Source: Clostridia bacterium (GTDB lineage Bacteria > Bacillota > Clostridia > TANB77 > CAG-508). Taken from it: 64,000 bases of DNA. Below, in pieces: positions 42,781 to 50,567 of the stretch (the stretch's first letter is position 1; each line of letters begins with the position of its first letter). The DNA lies in contig JAFTJF010000011.1 in the NCBI GenBank assembly GCA_017456555.1, positions 35,831 to 99,830 of the forward strand, written 5' to 3'. The notes under the pieces are model-generated. The model saw only the letters and a list, made by a program, of their open reading frames with translations. It was not told the origin of the DNA and made no database searches. A program made the position numbers and the translations under genes.

Positions 42781-44547
42781 ATGAAAGGAAACATGTACAG
42801 AACATATAAGTGTTCAGAATTACGTGAAAAACACGTAGGAGAAGAAATTAAACTAGCAGGATGGGTAGACACAATAAGAGATTTAGGAGGAGTTCTATTT
42901 ATTGATTTAAGAGATCAATATGGTGTAACTCAAGTAGTAGTTTCAGGAGATGAAGAAAAAGTTGAATTTGCCTCAAAAATACCAACTGAATCTACAATAT
43001 CTGTTTCAGGAAAAGTAAGATTAAGAGATGAAGAAACAATTAACTTAAAATTAGAAACTGGAACAGTAGAATTATTTGCAGATAAAATCGAAATTTTAGG
43101 TAAAAGAACAAAAGCTTTACCATTCGAAATTGAATCAGACAGAAGTGTTAGAGAAGATTTGAGATTAGAATACAGATTTTTAGATTTAAGAGCAAGAAAA
43201 AACTTAGAAAATTTAAAATTAAGAGCTGAATTAATTCAATTCTTAAGATTAAAAATGATAGAGCAAGGATTTTTAGAAGTTCAAACTCCAATCCTTACAA
43301 GTTCATCACCAGAAGGTGCAAGAGATTATTTAGTACCAAGTAGAATGTACCCAGGAAAATTTTATGCACTTCCACAAGCACCACAACAATTTAAACAATT
43401 ATTAATGGTTTCTGGAATTGATAAATATTTCCAAATAGCACCTTGTTTTAGAGATGAAGATTCAAGAGCAGATAGATCTCCTGGAGAATTCTATCAATTA
43501 GATATGGAAATGGCTTTTGCTACTCAAGAAGATGTATTTTCAGTAATGGAAAAAGTAATGTATGATACATTTACAAGATTCTCTGATAAAAAAGTTGCAG
43601 AATATCCATTCCCAAGAATTCCATATGAGGAAGCGATGCTTAAATATGGTAGTGATAAACCAGATTTAAGAAACCCATTAGAAATAAAAGATGTTACAAA
43701 CATTTTTGAAAAAATAGATATAAAAGTATTTAATGGGAAAATCGTTAGAACAATTACACTTCCAGAAGGAGCGGCTGTAGAAAGATCTTTCTATGATGGT
43801 ATGACAGAATTTGCTATAGAAGATTGTAAAGCAAAAGGTTTAGCTTGGATAAAAATATTAGAAGATGGAGAATGGCAAGGTCCAATAGCTAAATTTATTG
43901 ATGAAGAATCAAGAAAAGAATTCATGAAACAAACAGATACAAAAATCGGAGATAGTGTATTCTTTATTGCAGAACATAAAGGAATTGTAGAAAAACTAGC
44001 TGGAGAAATAAGAAAGGAAATTGGAAAAAGACAAGGATTAATAGATGATTCAGAATATAGATTCTGCTGGATAGTAGATTTCCCAATGTATGAATTAACA
44101 GATAGCGGAAAAATTGATTTTTGTCACAACCCATTTTCGATGCCACAAGGTGGATTAGAAGCGTTAACAACTAAAGATCCATTAGATATTTATGCATATC
44201 AATATGATATAGTTTGTAACGGAATAGAACTTTCTTCTGGTGCTGTTAGAAACCATGATCCAGAAATCATGATAAAAGCATTTGAAATTGCAGGATATAC
44301 AGAAGAAGATATTAAAACAAAATTTGCTGCATTATTTAAAGCTTTTCATTATGGAGCACCACCACATGCTGGAATTGCACCAGGTGTTGATAGAATATTA
44401 ATGCTTTTAGCTGGAGAAGAATCAATAAGAGAAGTTATTGCATTTCCAATGAACTCAAAAGCACAAGACCTTTTAATGGGAGCGCCAGGAGTTGTTACAG
44501 AAAAACAATTAAGAGAAGTTCATATTAAGCTAGATATAAAAAAATAA
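42781..44547 (+). CDS. aspS: Aspartate--tRNA ligase (bacterial type, 588 aa)
   Basis: OB anticodon-binding domain, class II motifs (FRDEDSRADRSPEFYQLD, GIELSSGAVRNH, GIAPGVDR) and the bacterial insertion domain. Confidence 0.95.
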   Translation: MKGNMYRTYKCSELREKHVGEEIKLAGWVDTIRDLGGVLFIDLRDQYGVTQVVVSGDEEKVEFASKIPTESTISVSGKVRLRDEETINLKLETGTVELFADKIEILGKRTKALPFEIESDRSVREDLRLEYRFLDLRARKNLENLKLRAELIQFLRLKMIEQGFLEVQTPILTSSSPEGARDYLVPSRMYPGKFYALPQAPQQFKQLLMVSGIDKYFQIAPCFRDEDSRADRSPGEFYQLDMEMAFATQEDVFSVMEKVMYDTFTRFSDKKVAEYPFPRIPYEEAMLKYGSDKPDLRNPLEIKDVTNIFEKIDIKVFNGKIVRTITLPEGAAVERSFYDGMTEFAIEDCKAKGLAWIKILEDGEWQGPIAKFIDEESRKEFMKQTDTKIGDSVFFIAEHKGIVEKLAGEIRKEIGKRQGLIDDSEYRFCWIVDFPMYELTDSGKIDFCHNPFSMPQGGLEALTTKDPLDIYAYQYDIVCNGIELSSGAVRNHDPEIMIKAFEIAGYTEEDIKTKFAALFKAFHYGAPPHAGIAPGVDRILMLLAGEESIREVIAFPMNSKAQDLLMGAPGVVTEKQLREVHIKLDIKK

Positions 44548-44694: not shown

Positions 44695-44729
44695 GTTGAC
44701 AAGCAAAAAAAATCGTGCTAACATTTTAA
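44695..44729 (+). promoter_or_regulatory. Promoter of the leader-peptide / ABC transporter operon
   Basis: TTGACA (44695-44700), 17 nt, TGcTAACAT. Confidence 0.55.
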
Positions 44730-44760
44730 TATAGAAAAAATCAAAGGAGAATTATTTTTT

Positions 44761-44802
44761 ATGAATTTAGTAAAAGGTAACAAACATCATCATAAAAAAT
44801 AG
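44761..44802 (+). CDS. 13-codon leader peptide MNLVKGNKHHHKK with three consecutive His codons
   Basis: RBS AAAGGAGA 10 nt upstream. CAT CAT CAT at 44785-44793. The stop codon abuts the first of several mutually exclusive hairpin segments. Confidence 0.55.
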   Translation: MNLVKGNKHHHKK

Positions 44803-44864
44803 CTTGTGTCTTAGAATATATTAGGCACAGGCTTTTGATGATGCTTGTGCCTTTAGTGTTTTTA

Positions 44865-44915
44865 AGAGCCTTAAAGGTACTAGAATAAATCTAGAATACC
44901 TTTAGGGCTCTTTTT
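44865..44915 (+). terminator. Attenuator terminator
   Basis: 15-bp stem AGAGCCTTAAAGGTA / TACCTTTAGGGCTCT followed by TTTTT. It lies between the promoter/leader and the transporter genes. Confidence 0.75.
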
Positions 44916-45131
44916 GTATACCAAAATCAATTTTACAAATAGCGCGCAAAATAAAATTGATTTTTGCAAGTTTTATGATGAATTTAAAATTATAAAAATA
45001 GAAATATAAAAAAGAGAGGGAATTAATAAAATTCTTACTTTGGTTTTGAAATAAATTTATTTAATAGATAAATTTAGATGATAAAAAAGAAAATAAATTA
45101 TTTATTAAAAAGAAAAAATGGAGGTAATATT

Positions 45132-45932
45132 ATGAAAAATATGGTAAAAGGAATAATTGCAGTAGTTGCAGTTTTTATAATTGTTGTAGGAATATTTTAT
45201 ATGAATAGAGATACAGAAGGAAATAATGAAGATACATTAGTGGTTGGATTAGATGATAGTTTTCCACCAATGGGATTTAGAAATGAAAATAATGAAATAG
45301 TTGGATTTGATATTGATTTGGCTAAAGCAGTAGCAGAAGAACTAGGGATGGAAGTTAAATTTCAACCAATATCATGGGCTTCAAAAGAACAAGAATTAAG
45401 TTCTGGAAATATAGATTGTATTTGGAATGGATTTGCATATAACGAAGAAAGAGCAGCGACAATGACATTAACAGATCCATACATAAAAGGAGAAAACTAT
45501 TTTATATTAAAAAATGGTAGTAAAGTAACATCTCAAGAAGAATTAAAAGGAAAGAAAATAGGAGTTCAAACAGGTTCAATACAAGCACAAGACTTAGAAA
45601 AATCTGAATTTGGAAAAGCAGTAGAGATAATACAATATGGTGATAATTTAACAGCCTTTATGGATTTAGAAACAGAAGGAATTGATGCATTATTTTGTTC
45701 TAACATCATTGGAAACTATTTAATAACTTCAAAAGGAAAAGATTATGAAACTATTGCCTCAGAAAATATTACAGTATCAAATGGAAGTGTAATTGCATTT
45801 AAACAAGGTAATACAGAATTAAGAGATAAAATTCAAAATGCATTAATAAGATTAGAACAAACTGGAAGTTTAGATAGTATTTCAGAAAAATGGTTTGGAA
45901 AAGATATGATAATAATTAATGAGGTGAAGTAA
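45132..45932 (+). CDS. Polar amino-acid ABC transporter substrate-binding protein
   Basis: Signal anchor, then GLDDSFPPMGFRNENNEIVGFDIDLAKAVA..IDCIWNGF. RBS GGAGGT before ATG 45132. Confidence 0.88.
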   Translation: MKNMVKGIIAVVAVFIIVVGIFYMNRDTEGNNEDTLVVGLDDSFPPMGFRNENNEIVGFDIDLAKAVAEELGMEVKFQPISWASKEQELSSGNIDCIWNGFAYNEERAATMTLTDPYIKGENYFILKNGSKVTSQEELKGKKIGVQTGSIQAQDLEKSEFGKAVEIIQYGDNLTAFMDLETEGIDALFCSNIIGNYLITSKGKDYETIASENITVSNGSVIAFKQGNTELRDKIQNALIRLEQTGSLDSISEKWFGKDMIIINEVK

Positions 45933-45933
45933 T

Positions 45934-46584
45934 ATGAATTTAGAACAGACAATAAATGTAGCGAAAATACTATTTTCTGGAATAGGAGTATCACTTCAAA
46001 TATTTGTTTTAACATTCATATTTTCAATACCACTTGGAATTATAGTTGCAGTTCTTAGAAATTCAAAATGTAAAATAATTTCATATTTGATGAAAGGATA
46101 TATTTTACTAATTCGTGGAACTCCAATAATGCTTCAAATTATAGTTGTTTACTTTTGTCCTTATTATATGTTTAGAGTGAGTTATGACAGATTTGCCGCT
46201 ATAATAATTGCTTTTGTAATTAATTATGCAGCTTATTTTTCAGAAATATTTAGAAGCGGAATTAATAGTATTCCAGATGGACAAAAAGAGGCAGCATATA
46301 CTTTGGGATTTAATAAAGTTCAAACATTTTTCTTAATAATTTTACCACAAGTTGTGAAAATTATTTTACCATCAATGTCTAATGAGGTTATTTCTCTTTT
46401 GAAAACAACTTCACTTGCTCAAATTATTGGTGTAACAGAAATGTTTGCGTTAGCACAAAAACAAGCAAGCTATAATTTTTCAATAATTCCTTTAGTACTA
46501 GCAGGAGGTTATTACTTAATCTTAGTATTTTTCGTATCAATATTATTTAATAAGGCAGAGAAAAAATTGGAGTATTATAGTTAA
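45934..46584 (+). CDS. Polar amino-acid ABC transporter permease (His/Glu/Gln/Arg/opine family)
   Basis: EAA-loop-like block EAAYTLGFNKVQTFFLIILPQ and five TM segments. Confidence 0.92.
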   Translation: MNLEQTINVAKILFSGIGVSLQIFVLTFIFSIPLGIIVAVLRNSKCKIISYLMKGYILLIRGTPIMLQIIVVYFCPYYMFRVSYDRFAAIIIAFVINYAAYFSEIFRSGINSIPDGQKEAAYTLGFNKVQTFFLIILPQVVKIILPSMSNEVISLLKTTSLAQIIGVTEMFALAQKQASYNFSIIPLVLAGGYYLILVFFVSILFNKAEKKLEYYS

Positions 46585-46596
46585 TTAAATTGGGAT

Positions 46597-46681
46597 GATT
46601 TGGGGACGGAGAAAAAAATCATTCTTTAGCCAAAAAATTAAAAATAGATTTGGGGATGATTTTTGTCTCCGTCCCTAAATC
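46597..46681. repeat. Palindromic MITE/REP-like element, copy 2, intercistronic inside the ABC operon
   Basis: GATTTGGGGACGGAGAAAAAAATCAT ... ATGATTTTTGTCTCCGTCCCTAAATC. The central loop TCTTTAGCCAAAAAAT.. is shared with copy 1. Confidence 0.85.
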
Positions 46682-46697
46682 CTAAAGAGGTGAGAAA

Positions 46698-48986
46698 ATG
46701 AATGTTTTAGAAGTTAAAAATTTAAGTAAAAAATTTGAAAATATAGAAGTAATAAAAGATGTATCTTTTTCTGTAAAAGAAGGCGAAACATTAGTAATAT
46801 TAGGACCTTCTGGGAGTGGAAAATCTACACTTTTAAGATGCATAAACAATTTAGAAAAAATAGATTCAGGAAATATTATTATAAACGAAAAAGAAATGAT
46901 TAAAGAATATAAAAATAATAAACTAGTTTACAATGATAAAGAAATTTTGAACAAAATAAATTTAGACACAGGAATGGTATTTCAAGATTTTAATTTATTT
47001 CCACATTTATCAGTTAAAGAAAATATAACAATAAGTTTGATAAATGTTTTGAAAATGTCAAAAGAAGAGGCAAATAAAAAAGCTGATGAAGTCCTTGAAA
47101 AAATGGATTTAAAAGAAAAAGAAAATTCTTATCCGTGTGATTTATCAGGTGGACAAAAACAAAGAGTTTCTATTGCAAGAGTTTTAGCAATAAATCCTAA
47201 AATTATTTGTATGGATGAACCAACTAGTGCTCTTGATCCAGAACTTGTTGGTGAAGTCTTGAAAACTATAAAACAATTATCTAAGGAAAATAGAACAATG
47301 ATAATAGTAACTCACGAAATTAAATTTGCAGAAGAAGTTGCTGATAGAGTTATATTCATGGATGGTGGGATTATTGTGGAAGAAGGTAAACCTGAAGAGG
47401 TTATAAAAAGACCGCAAAAGCCAAGAACAAAAGAGTTTTTGAAAAGATATATTAATTTTGAGGTGAATGATTTGAAAGAATTAGATATAGAAGAAAACGA
47501 ACCAAGAGAGGTAATTGAATTTTTTAAAGAAATAAGTGATATTCCAAGAGAATCTGGAAATGAAGAAAGGATAAGAGATTATCTAGTAAATTTTGCAAAA
47601 GAAAGAAATTTAGAATATTACACAGATAAATATTTTAATGTAATTATTAGAAAAGAAGCTTCAGAAGGATTTGAAAATGAAGAAATTCTAGGATTTCAAG
47701 CTCATACAGATATGATTTGTGAAAAAATAGAAGGAAGTACACATGATTTTTCAAAAGATCCAATCAAATTATATCAAGACGGTGATTTTATAACAGCTAA
47801 TGGAACTACTTTAGGTGCGGATAACGGAATTGGTGTTGCATATATGCTTGCAATTTTAGATTCAAATAAAATCAAAGGTCCTAAAATAGAATGTATATTT
47901 ACAACTCAAGAAGAAACAACAATGATTGGCGCTAAAGAAATTGATGAATCTCAAATTAAATGTAGAAAAATGATTTCCTTAGATAATGGAAAACAAGGAA
48001 AAATGGTTATAAGCTCTGCAAATTGTATGGAATGGTTTGGTGAAATTAAAACAGAAAAAATAGATTTACTAGAAAATGATTTGACTTTATTTGAGCTTAC
48101 TTATTCTAATTTTATTGGTGGACACTCTGGTGGAAATATTGGTGATATAAAAAGAGGAAATCCTATTAAACTTGGAATTGAAGTTATAGAGAATATTGAT
48201 GAAATTTATATTCAAAGTTTAGAAGGTGGAAGCAGAGTAAATGTAATTCCAAGAGACTTTAAAATTTGTTTTTGGGCTAGAGAAAATGAATATGGAAAAA
48301 TGAAAGAAAAAGTAAATAAGCAAATTAGATTTTATGGCGAAGATGTTAATATAAAATTAAATAGGAGTGATATAAAACTAGGAAGAGAAAATAATGAGAA
48401 AGATATAGAAAATGAGCTATATGAAAATAATGATATAAACATAAAAGAAAATAATAAACAAAAAGAAATTAGAAAAGTTTATAGTAAAAATATAACTAAA
48501 AAAATAATTAATTTTGTAAATTCATTTGTAAATGGTGCAATCGAATATGATGATAACAATAATGTTGTTTTATCAGCAAATTTTGCAGCAGCAAAATGCT
48601 TAGAAAATTCTGTTAGATTTGAATATTCTTTAAGAGCAAATAATTTAAAATTGAGAGATAAATATTTAGAAAATTTGAGAAAAATTGAAAAAGAAAATGA
48701 TATAAAAATATCTTGGGAACAAGAATTAAAAGGTATTGAGCCAGATTTTGAAAATGAATTAGTAAAAAAATGTTCAATAATATATAAAGAAATTTTTGAT
48801 GAGGAAATGGAATTAAAAATTTCACAAGGTGTTGTTGAAGGTGGATTTTTTAAATACAAAATTGAAGATTTAGAATATGTATGTATTGGACCAAATACTT
48901 TTGATGTTCACAGTCCAAAAGAAAGAGTTTCTATAAAATCTATGCAAGTAACATGGGAATATATTAAAAAAATCATATTTTCTTAG
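46698..48986 (+). CDS. Amino-acid ABC transporter ATP-binding protein continuous with an aminoacyl-histidine (Xaa-His) dipeptidase PepD (M20C) in one 762-codon ORF
   Basis: N-terminus: GPSGSGKST, LSGGQKQRVSIAR, MDEPTSALD. C-terminus: FQAHTDMI, HDFSKDPI, GTTLGADNGIG, GGHSGG, GPNTFDVHSPKERV. No in-frame stop at the junction. A possible internal start TTG 47472 follows GAGGTG. Confidence 0.85.
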   Translation: MNVLEVKNLSKKFENIEVIKDVSFSVKEGETLVILGPSGSGKSTLLRCINNLEKIDSGNIIINEKEMIKEYKNNKLVYNDKEILNKINLDTGMVFQDFNLFPHLSVKENITISLINVLKMSKEEANKKADEVLEKMDLKEKENSYPCDLSGGQKQRVSIARVLAINPKIICMDEPTSALDPELVGEVLKTIKQLSKENRTMIIVTHEIKFAEEVADRVIFMDGGIIVEEGKPEEVIKRPQKPRTKEFLKRYINFEVNDLKELDIEENEPREVIEFFKEISDIPRESGNEERIRDYLVNFAKERNLEYYTDKYFNVIIRKEASEGFENEEILGFQAHTDMICEKIEGSTHDFSKDPIKLYQDGDFITANGTTLGADNGIGVAYMLAILDSNKIKGPKIECIFTTQEETTMIGAKEIDESQIKCRKMISLDNGKQGKMVISSANCMEWFGEIKTEKIDLLENDLTLFELTYSNFIGGHSGGNIGDIKRGNPIKLGIEVIENIDEIYIQSLEGGSRVNVIPRDFKICFWARENEYGKMKEKVNKQIRFYGEDVNIKLNRSDIKLGRENNEKDIENELYENNDINIKENNKQKEIRKVYSKNITKKIINFVNSFVNGAIEYDDNNNVVLSANFAAAKCLENSVRFEYSLRANNLKLRDKYLENLRKIEKENDIKISWEQELKGIEPDFENELVKKCSIIYKEIFDEEMELKISQGVVEGGFFKYKIEDLEYVCIGPNTFDVHSPKERVSIKSMQVTWEYIKKIIFS

Positions 48987-49064: not shown

Positions 49065-50567
49065 ATGAACGAAAATGAAAATAATGAAATAATTCAAACA
49101 GAAGAGGATATTAACAGATTAATGCAAATTAGAATTGATAAATTAAAAGAACTTCAAGCAGCTGGAAAAGATCCTTTTGAAATCACAAAATATGACAGAA
49201 CAGAACAATCAATGGATATAAAAAATAACTACGAAACATATGAAGGAAAAGATGTTTCAGTAGCTGGTAGAATTATGGCAAAAAGAATCATGGGAAAAGC
49301 ATCTTTTGTTACAATTCAAGATAGTCAGGGAAAAATTCAAAGTTATGTTAGTATAAATGATTTAGGAGAAGAAAGTTATAAAGCTTTCAAAACATATGAT
49401 ATAGGAGATATCATTGGAATTAAAGGATTTGTTTTCAAAACAAAAACTGAAGAAATTTCTATCCATGCTAAAGAAGTTGTACTTTTAACAAAATCATTAA
49501 GAGATTTACCAGAAAAATTCCATGGATTAAAAGATATAGATTTACGTTATAGACAAAGATATGTAGATTTAATTGTAAATCCAGAAGTTAAAGAAACATT
49601 CCTTTTAAGAAGCAAAATTTTAAAAGAAATCAAAAATTATTTAGATAACGAAGGATACTTAGAAGTAGATACACCAATATTAAACACAATTGCTGGTGGA
49701 GCTACAGCTAGACCATTTATCACACATCACAATACATTAGATTTAGATATGTATCTAAGAATTGCTAACGAATTATATTTAAAAAGATTAATAGTTGGTG
49801 GGTTTGATAGAGTATATGAAATGGGAAGAATGTTCAGAAATGAAGGAATGGACATTAAACATAACCCAGAATATACAGGAATAGAATTTTATGCATCATA
49901 CCAAGATTATAATGATATGATGAACTTATCAGAAAATATGATAAGAACAGTAGCTCAAAAATGTTTAGGAACAGCAAAAATTAATTATCAAGGATTAGAT
50001 ATTGATTTAGAATCTCCATGGAGAAGAGTTCCTATGATAACAGCTATTAAAGAAGTTACAGGAATTGACTTTAATGAAATCAACACAGATGAAGAAGCTA
50101 TCGCTATAGCAAAAGAAAAACATGTTGAAGTTGATGAATCAAAACAAAATAGAGGATATATTATAAATGCATTCTTTGAAGAATTTGTTGAAGAAACATT
50201 AATTCAACCAACATTCATTTGTGATTATCCAGTTGAAGTTTCACCATTAACAAAAAGAAAACCATCAGATAAGAGATTAGTTGAAAGATTTGAGTTATTT
50301 ATTGGTGGACGTGAATATGGAAATGCTTATTCAGAATTAAATGATCCAATCGATCAAAGAGAAAGATTTGTTGAACAATTAAGACAAAAAGAAGCTGGAG
50401 ATGAAGAAGCTAATGATATGGATGAAGACTTCTGTATGGCTATTGAATATGGTATGCCTCCAACAGGTGGAATGGGAATTGGAATTGACAGATTAGTTAT
50501 GTTATTAACAGATTCTGCATCAATTAGAGATGTAATTTTATTCCCAACAATGAAACCATTAAACTAA
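49065..50567 (+). CDS. lysS: Lysine--tRNA ligase (class II)
   Basis: OB domain and class II motifs ([28 protein letters not shown]). Confidence 0.95.

Follow-up and report, generated by a model that had tools for sequence, protein, structure and literature searches.

Introduction

The closest described relatives of the gene analysed here are of two kinds: the ATPase subunits of ATP-binding cassette (ABC) importers for polar amino acids, such as Art(QN)2/ArtP and HisP (4yms, 2olj, 1b0u), and the M20C aminoacyl-histidine (Xaa-His) dipeptidases, or PepDs, of Vibrio alginolyticus (3mru) and Haemophilus somnus (2qyv). In a stretch of 64,000 nucleotides from a Clostridia bacterium (assembly GCA_017456555.1, contig JAFTJF010000011.1, positions 35,831 to 99,830; hereafter the window, whose own numbering is used throughout), a single open reading frame (ORF) at 46698-48986 reads through one protein of each kind. 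We consider it very likely that this is a genuine bifunctional fusion gene, born by loss of a stop codon in a histidine-regulated operon, with the mode of working proposed below. The nucleotide-binding domain (NBD) of the window protein is 46-54% identical to ArtP and HisP over the aligned fold, with template modelling (TM) scores of 0.92-0.97, and its operon partners are also, as in the Art and His importers, a family-3 substrate-binding protein (SBP) and a single HEQRo permease; whereas ArtP and HisP end at about 240-260 residues, the window ATPase runs on into a 500-residue enzyme. This enzyme shares with the known PepDs the catalytic-plus-lid fold and the seven active-site residues, whereas the known PepDs are free cytosolic homodimers and the window PepD appears as a domain tethered to a transporter subunit, with a disordered 31-residue insertion in its lid.

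Extra domains on ABC subunits are a familiar theme. As here, the NBD core of MalK, MetN, ModC and OpuAA is followed by a further domain, which would be placed beneath the NBD dimer and might itself dimerise; in those proteins, however, it is a small regulatory fold (TOBE, NIL/ACT-like, CBS), whereas the C-terminal part of the window protein is an M20 peptidase fold, neither TOBE nor NIL/ACT-like. ABC transporters with a fused cargo-processing enzyme are exemplified by IrtAB (siderophore-reductase domain) and by the PCAT exporters (C39 peptidase domain), in which, as here, one polypeptide moves a compound and holds an enzyme of the same pathway. Those proteins have the exporter fold and an N-terminal enzyme, whereas the window importer is of type I and its enzyme is joined to an ATPase subunit encoded apart from the permease. 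The window polypeptide has neither a C39 match nor a transmembrane domain, and its peptidase is a C-terminal M20 domain by Pfam. The enzymes of IrtAB and PCAT process the cargo, whereas action of the window PepD on the transported molecule is a hypothesis. Finally, infB (IF2 alpha/beta), clpB and cheA yield two products per ORF through in-frame internal initiation; the window gene likewise has a conserved in-frame Shine-Dalgarno (SD) sequence and start-capable codon inside the ORF, and differs in that its internal start is a relic of a once separate gene, the use of which is deduced from sequence conservation only. In the full-text literature we found no description of an ABC ATPase-dipeptidase fusion or of an enzyme-fused importer, and the papers on Candidatus Scatovivens, the genus concerned, were only taxonomic or ecological. 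The ATPase-PepD architecture was thus not found described before. In kind it resembles the known ABC subunits with an accessory or enzyme domain, and the window locus is a full member of none of the three groups just named.

Results and Discussion

A single frame through an importer ATPase and a dipeptidase

The features of the gene are as follows (all on the + strand).

46685-46694: ribosome-binding site AAAGAGGTGA of the ATPase-PepD ORF (sequence)
46698-48986: the single ORF listed here, 762 residues
46698-47450: ABC nucleotide-binding domain, residues 1-251, polar-amino-acid importer type (family and PDB matches, fold match, motifs)
47451-47501: linker, residues 252-268, probably translated from what was once the intergenic region (codons compared with those of L022, L032 and L040, all split; SD statistics; model confidence)
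47457-47459: codon 254, TTT (F254), in place of a presumed ancestral TAA
47460-47466: relic SD sequence GAGGTGA
47472-47474: relic and putative internal start TTG (L259)
47472-48986: M20C Xaa-His dipeptidase (PepD) domain, 504 codons from the internal TTG (TIGR01893, fold match, active-site alignment)
48375-48467: N/E/K-rich insertion of about 31 residues (560-590) in the PepD lid domain, predicted to be disordered

The codons at the junction (...AAA AGA TAT ATT AAT TTT GAG GTG AAT GAT TTG AAA...) are free of stops. The coordinates given for this site in an earlier note, made from the letters alone, are correct: GAGGTG at 47460-47465, an in-frame TTG at 47472, and TGA in both other frames (47459-47461 and 47464-47466). 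The gene has a G+C content of 27% (26.9% for the window), and the two other frames contain 94 and 105 stops per 762 codons, so that an open frame of this length is far beyond chance. The same note had recognised a complete polar-amino-acid ABC ATPase with Walker A, LSGGQ and Walker B motifs, followed in frame by a full-length M20C dipeptidase, and the profile searches agree on both counts. Pfam places ABC_tran at residues 20-177 (125.8 bits against a cut-off of 25) and Peptidase_M20 at residues 333-760, and the NCBIfam model for aminoacyl-histidine dipeptidases, TIGR01893, covers residues 269-760 with 377 bits against a cut-off of 343.75 (profile positions 3-474 of 478). The NCBIfam polar-amino-acid ATPase models stop at residue ~252; the equivalogs with a named substrate, TcyN, GlnQ, HisP and ArtP, all fall under their cut-offs (293/406, 288/379, 258/466 and 229/369 bits, respectively). 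As read from this frame, no ATPase subunit of the importer is without a complete Xaa-His dipeptidase, attached C-terminally.

The catalytic equipment of both halves seems intact. Among 62 fused proteins, the Walker A motif GPSGSGKS (G36-S43), Q96, LSGGQ (149-153), D173/E174 and H206 are invariant. The PepD residues H336, D338, D375, E405, E406, D429 and H738 align with H80, D82, D119, E149, E150, D173 and H461 of 3mru, which we take to be the di-metal ligands and the catalytic Asp/Glu, and these seven are invariant or nearly so in the same 62 sequences. The ratio of nonsynonymous to synonymous substitution rates (dN/dS) between fused pairs is 0.03-0.14 for the ATPase domain and 0.08-0.35 for PepD, over pairs with dS of 0.1-0.9; by these measures both halves are under purifying selection.

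An AlphaFold2 model has a mean predicted local distance difference test score (pLDDT) of 88, with both domains confident and values below 50 only in the linker at residues 255-257 and in the insert at 560-590 (34-38 in the latter); the prediction for the linker, proposed as a check in the earlier note, is therefore of a flexible segment. The lid insertion is species-specific, since most aligned relatives are without it and it is present in the 762-763-residue variants of the window species group. In Foldseek comparisons the PepD half matches 3mru and 2qyv (TM score 0.78-0.88) and the ATPase half matches ArtP 2olj (0.97), and no PDB chain covers both halves. As a side observation, one fused subclade (L003, L024 and clusters P0047-P0076, 703-710 residues) is missing 26 ATPase residues, corresponding to window residues ~62-87, between Walker A and the Q-loop, and otherwise has all motifs in place.

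Distribution of the fused gene

The identical 762-residue protein is encoded on five independent contigs (NCBI, Logan and ENA assemblies), and five more near-identical variants of the same length come from other assemblies. A junction-spanning query (residues 150-400 of the window protein) retrieved 120 clusters among the matches listed, all of which, except P0063 (449 residues), have both Pfam domains. The full-length fused clusters are of 700-785 residues, with P0112 (642) and P0119 (631) truncated, and their identity to the window protein ranges from 100% down to about 54%. In the genus, which is uncultured and known from metagenome-assembled genomes of the gut, 15 of 75 species genomes have an open frame of 706-768 residues through both domains, and a further one, G016, is also fused and is ended by the contig edge; in five the orthologous pepD stands unfused, and the remaining genomes are without the gene, so that fused and split species number 16 and 5. 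The hosts whose gut yielded related loci are chicken, rabbit, mouse, human and ruminants. Among 1.84 billion representatives at 50% identity, only this one cluster, P0074, matches both domains. The next candidates, P0122 (624 residues), a tandem ATPase, and P0131, a permease-ATPase, contain no PepD fusion, and the apparent junction-spanning matches at L059, L063, L069, L079 and L093 turned out to be ordinary unfused PepDs without an adjoining ATPase. The NCBI automatic annotation of one fused member reads only 'beta-Ala-His dipeptidase'.

The earlier note had proposed to look for orthologues with the same fused architecture; 16 species of the genus have one, as do more than 110 metagenomic clusters, and it is not the case that all close relatives encode two genes. 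The possibility of a genuine transporter-hydrolase fusion, which the note had left beside two others, is the one borne out, and these comparisons indicate that the 762-codon ORF is a real, conserved bifunctional gene and not an artefact.

Probable origin of the fusion from an in-frame stop codon

Species-representative genomes were scanned for a close ATPase gene adjoining pepD, which gave 28 loci, 13 fused and 15 split, all in one clade; the more distant PepDs (at most 36% identity) have no adjoining ATPase. In several of the split sisters the TAA of the ATPase gene is followed by an SD sequence and the ATG of pepD, with both genes in one frame and 12 nt apart. The codons around the junction are shown below for a split locus, a fused locus and the window.

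L022 (split): TAT ATA AAT TAA AGG AGG ATT AAT ATG GAA AAA TTA
L023 (fused): TAT ATA GAT ATA AAG GAG AAA AGT ATG GAA AAA TTA
window (fused): TAT ATT AAT TTT GAG GTG AAT GAT TTG AAA GAA TTA

Two more split loci, L032 and L040, have the in-frame TAA-GGAG-ATG layout of L022 and align with the fused junctions codon for codon. Because of this match, the linker of the fused proteins can be read as the translated ribosome-binding site of the former intergenic region. By the same alignment F254 sits exactly at the old stop, and L259 (TTG) at the old pepD start. A second type of junction is represented by L043, which is split with an ATGA overlap, and by its fused sisters L036 and L038, which differ from it by 1 nt in length. 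Overall there are thus two junction types, stop substitution and 1-nt indel.

The suggestion of the earlier note that the ATPase had lost its stop codon is accordingly correct as evolutionary origin, since the split relatives have TAA at codon 254, and incorrect as a defect. Its proposal that a one-nucleotide indel separates the fused from the split state does not apply to the lineage of the window, where the change is an in-frame stop substitution; it does apply to the sister clade of L043 versus L036 and L038. A maximum-likelihood tree of the concatenated domains of 31 loci requires at least four changes between the fused and split states, forced by well-supported branches; the tree being unrooted, fusions and fissions are not separable among them.

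The following history would account for these observations. The ancestor would have had a four-gene histidine-regulated operon, consisting of a His leader attenuator followed by the genes for the binding protein, the permease, the ATPase and pepD. The TAA of its ATPase gene, the 12-nt spacer with the SD sequence of pepD and the pepD ATG would all have stood in one reading frame, and replacement of that stop by a sense codon, today TTT (F254), would have joined ATPase and pepD, the 17-residue linker being the translated ribosome-binding site.

Persistence of the fused state

The fused state persists over pairs with dS of 0.5-0.9 and over whole subclades of nine species. In L026, L034, L035, P0062 and P0112-P0115 the linker has grown to 53-87 residues rich in K, R and E (for example KKRYIKRK), in frame and free of stops; that of P0112 contains an internal duplication, with EDMMENNEDATKKKIKK present twice. 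At a chance of 0.107 per codon of a random stop, the probability of an open stretch is ~0.0004 for 70 codons (~0.0004-0.01 for linkers of 53-87 residues). We judge that the fusion is, at the least, tolerated well, and that a mild advantage is probable.

An alternative which we regard as possible, if somewhat unlikely, is that the fusion is a tolerated accident: with TAA, SD sequence and ATG in one frame, any stop substitution fuses the two genes, and the fused state would then drift near neutrality with no functional gain. Both termini involved in the junction are free, at least four changes of state occurred among only 31 loci, split and fused sisters can be very alike (L022 and L023), and no interface between the domains is predicted (predicted TM score, pTM, 0.60), all of which this account would explain. 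It is less easily reconciled with the retention of the fused state at the divergences and across the subclades just described, with the many linker codons that stand one step from a stop, with long linkers that have stayed open at 27% G+C, or with the ratio of 16 fused to 5 split species in the genus.

Retention of the old start site

In 17 of the 22 fused loci for which DNA was available, the position of the old pepD start has an ATG, TTG or GTG with an SD sequence of 5-9 nt before it. The variants include AAGGAG, AAAGGAGG(T), GAGGTGA, AGGTGAT and AAAGGA; as background, SD sequences of at least 6 nt are found at 2.65% of other in-frame positions. Of the five loci with Leu at the old start, four use TTG, a codon that accounts for 10% of Leu codons in these genes; the three loci with Val all use GTG, for which the usage is 8.5%. 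The residues encoded over the SD sequence vary (K-E, E-V, E-G-D, L-G-D, K-G-E) while the G-rich core is constant, a pattern that suggests that the RNA, and not the protein, is under selection here. In about 109 of 118 clusters there is Met at the old start, or Leu or Val reading TTG or GTG wherever the DNA was read; among the nine clusters with Leu, the DNA was not read for six, and P0029 (locus L102), which was read, has TTA. In the window itself the site consists of GAGGTGA, 5 nt and TTG, and in its lineage ATG has changed to TTG and GAGGAA to GAGGTG, a better SD sequence.

The combination of SD sequence and TTG that the earlier note had found to look intercistronic has thus survived from the old pepD start as a conserved relic, and its use probably continues. 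With SD sequence and start-capable codon both retained, a free 57-kDa PepD is likely to be made by internal initiation beside the 86-kDa fusion, and, PepD being a dimer, this free form may pair with the tethered one.

Operon context and the histidine attenuator

The elements surrounding the gene are the following (+ strand unless noted otherwise).

44696-44724: promoter-like TTGACA-17-TAACAT (promoter scan)
44761-44802: leader mini-ORF MNLVKGNKHHHKK after the SD sequence AAAGGAG, with three His codons at 44785-44793 (sequence; relatives)
44864-44917: terminator hairpin and U5 of the His attenuator (RNA fold)
45078-45932: family-3 SBP with an N-terminal membrane anchor (NCBIfam, PDB; SBP_bac_3 at the same place in relatives)
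45934-46584: single permease of 216 residues, HEQRo family with three transmembrane segments (TIGR01726, 72 bits against 42.2; BPD_transp_1 in relatives)
46597-46681, no strand assigned: 26-nt inverted repeat (92% complementarity, arms 33 nt apart), filling most of the 113-nt permease-ATPase spacer

The RNA of 44755-44925 folds with -64.5 kcal/mol (z = -9.2 relative to shuffled sequences), and the His codons pair with a downstream GAUGAUG. All the elements of a His leader attenuator are therefore present, namely consecutive His codons, alternative hairpins, a terminator with a U-run and a His-related operon. Nearly all relatives with enough flanking sequence, whether fused or split, have a His-rich mini-ORF (ending, for example, in GNKHHHKK, LHHHRRSL or NHHHR) upstream of the gene for the binding protein. 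As an observation apart, L025 and L028 have two or three tandem His-rich mini-ORFs before that gene (in L028, for instance, MTNIFKGNKHHHKK and MRNILKSNIHHHKK), which suggests duplicated leaders.

The SBP and permease genes lie directly upstream of the ATPase, and the same order is found in relatives. The SBP probably starts at the second ATG, 45132 (MKNMVKG..., 266 residues), as in relatives (262-267 residues), and the hydrophobic anchor that forms its N-terminus has no lipobox cysteine. It matches NCBIfam models of the Lys/Arg/Orn, cystine, Gln and His types, all below cut-off, and its closest PDB chains are AncQR, 4ohn and ArtJ (mixed Arg/Gln/His binders). The permease is presumably a homodimer. 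The spacer between permease and ATPase genes is only 13-34 nt in relatives; the inverted repeat of the window looks like a recently inserted palindrome inside the operon, of the repetitive extragenic palindromic (REP) or miniature inverted-repeat transposable element (MITE) kind, and its hairpin in the mRNA could alter the ratio of permease to ATPase-PepD expression. The operon stands between aspS (42781-44547) and lysS (49065-50567), and these same tRNA-synthetase neighbours recur in several relatives (L102, L104 and L105).

The gene hisD was found in none of the 41 genomes of the genus that were searched, that of the window included, while it was found in 14 of 14 controls; for this reason the genus is very probably a histidine auxotroph. 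A histidine-starvation switch on an amino-acid importer and an Xaa-His dipeptidase makes physiological sense, the attenuator context fits the Xaa-His dipeptide specificity expected of a PepD, and we infer that the system serves histidine scavenging.

A proposed mode of working and its alternatives

The working that we propose for the fused system starts with scarcity of charged tRNA-His, which would open the attenuator so that the auxotrophic cell makes the importer. By analogy with Art(QN)2, this would consist of SBP, permease2 and (ATPase-PepD)2, and would import histidine or a histidine-containing compound. The PepD dimer would hang below the ATPase dimer on the flexible 17-residue tether, in a fixed 1:1 ratio with the motor, and would split Xaa-His dipeptides next to the inner membrane face so that histidine is set free, while additional free PepD would come from the internal start.

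Several points weigh against this reading as a whole. Split genes suffice in five species of the genus and at 15 species loci overall; these relatives clearly function, and changes of state are frequent. The monomer model, with its pTM of 0.60, has no fixed interdomain orientation and no defined interface. The SBP resembles binders of single amino acids, so the imported molecule may differ from the substrate of the dipeptidase, and tethering may bring no kinetic benefit. The fused loci L102, L105 and L106 have lost both SD sequence and start codon, which makes internal initiation dispensable, and part of the retention elsewhere could be phylogenetic inertia. The 86-kDa fusion and the internal 57-kDa product are, moreover, predicted products. 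An effect of the fusion on the working of the transporter, like the coupling of import to hydrolysis, is a hypothesis.

A more demanding form of this hypothesis is that of a transport metabolon, in which Xaa-His dipeptides (carnosine-like ones, or Gly-His) would enter through the importer and be cleaved by the tethered PepD at the exit of the permease, uptake being pulled by hydrolysis as in a group-translocation-like ABC importer. We entertain it tentatively and think it rather unlikely. Transporter and dipeptidase do share an operon, a His attenuator and, in 16 species, one polypeptide; the adjacency of ATPase and pepD is confined to one clade; and the window genome (G000) has this one PepD match and no second PepD. 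However, SBP, permease and ATPase all belong to the polar-amino-acid family, the known solved members of which bind single amino acids, and the split relatives work without tethering. A still more elaborate import-hydrolysis machine, with the ATPase dimer clamped by a dipeptidase dimer that cleaves the His dipeptide at the permease exit, feeds back on the motor, or both, seems to us doubtful; if it existed, a single complex would link uptake, hydrolysis and regulation physically, and nature would have provided an ABC importer with a transport metabolon.

PepD might instead be a regulatory appendage that senses histidine or a dipeptide and throttles the ATPase (trans-inhibition), in the manner of the C-terminal domains of MalK and MetN, with hydrolysis secondary. 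It does occupy the place of the regulatory domains of MetN, MalK and OpuA-type NBDs, which appear in the fold search, and it is presumably dimeric, as 3mru is, like those domains. Its catalytic and metal residues are nonetheless all invariant, as expected of an enzyme, and the AlphaFold2 model gives no sign of interdomain contact; we therefore find this role improbable.

It is also highly improbable that the fusion is the minor product of a recoding event, with a programmed frameshift near the junction releasing a separate ATPase. Stops in both alternative frames right at the junction would serve such a mechanism (with a +1 slip on TTT TTG A at 47436-47442, for instance, the next stop is a TGA), but a canonical slippery heptamer is absent, a slip there would delete conserved C-terminal residues of the ATPase, and no stimulatory structure was seen, although none was searched for. 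The TTT-TTR-AAA stretch simply encodes FLK of FLKRY, a motif common to unfused ATPases, the conservation of which explains it; frameshifting at TTT TTG A was accordingly rejected.

Lastly, the earlier note had allowed for an assembly error, and a single miscalled base could mask a stop, since both other frames have TGA no more than 8 nt from the junction. Such an error of assembly or sequencing, or else a recent loss of the stop in the window genome only, has next to no chance of being true and is refuted by conservation, given the exact protein on five independent contigs with five near-identical variants, the fusion in 16 species and more than 110 clusters, and purifying selection on both halves.

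Significance

The bifunctional ATPase-PepD gene is a real, recurrent and lineage-restricted fusion of an enzyme to a transport motor, with natural split controls. ATPases of ABC importers are known with small regulatory domains, and we found none described with a complete catabolic enzyme; annotation as 'beta-Ala-His dipeptidase' hides the transporter half. As a case of the birth of a gene fusion, it illustrates how an in-frame arrangement of stop, SD sequence and start can become a linker by one substitution, with the old ribosome-binding site kept inside the new ORF. The fused and split sister species constitute a natural experiment on whether nutrients are captured better when an enzyme is tethered to the motor of a transporter, the long-discussed idea of a transport metabolon. 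For the organisms themselves, the operon marks histidine scavenging in a genus of Clostridia of the animal and human gut that is very probably auxotrophic for histidine.

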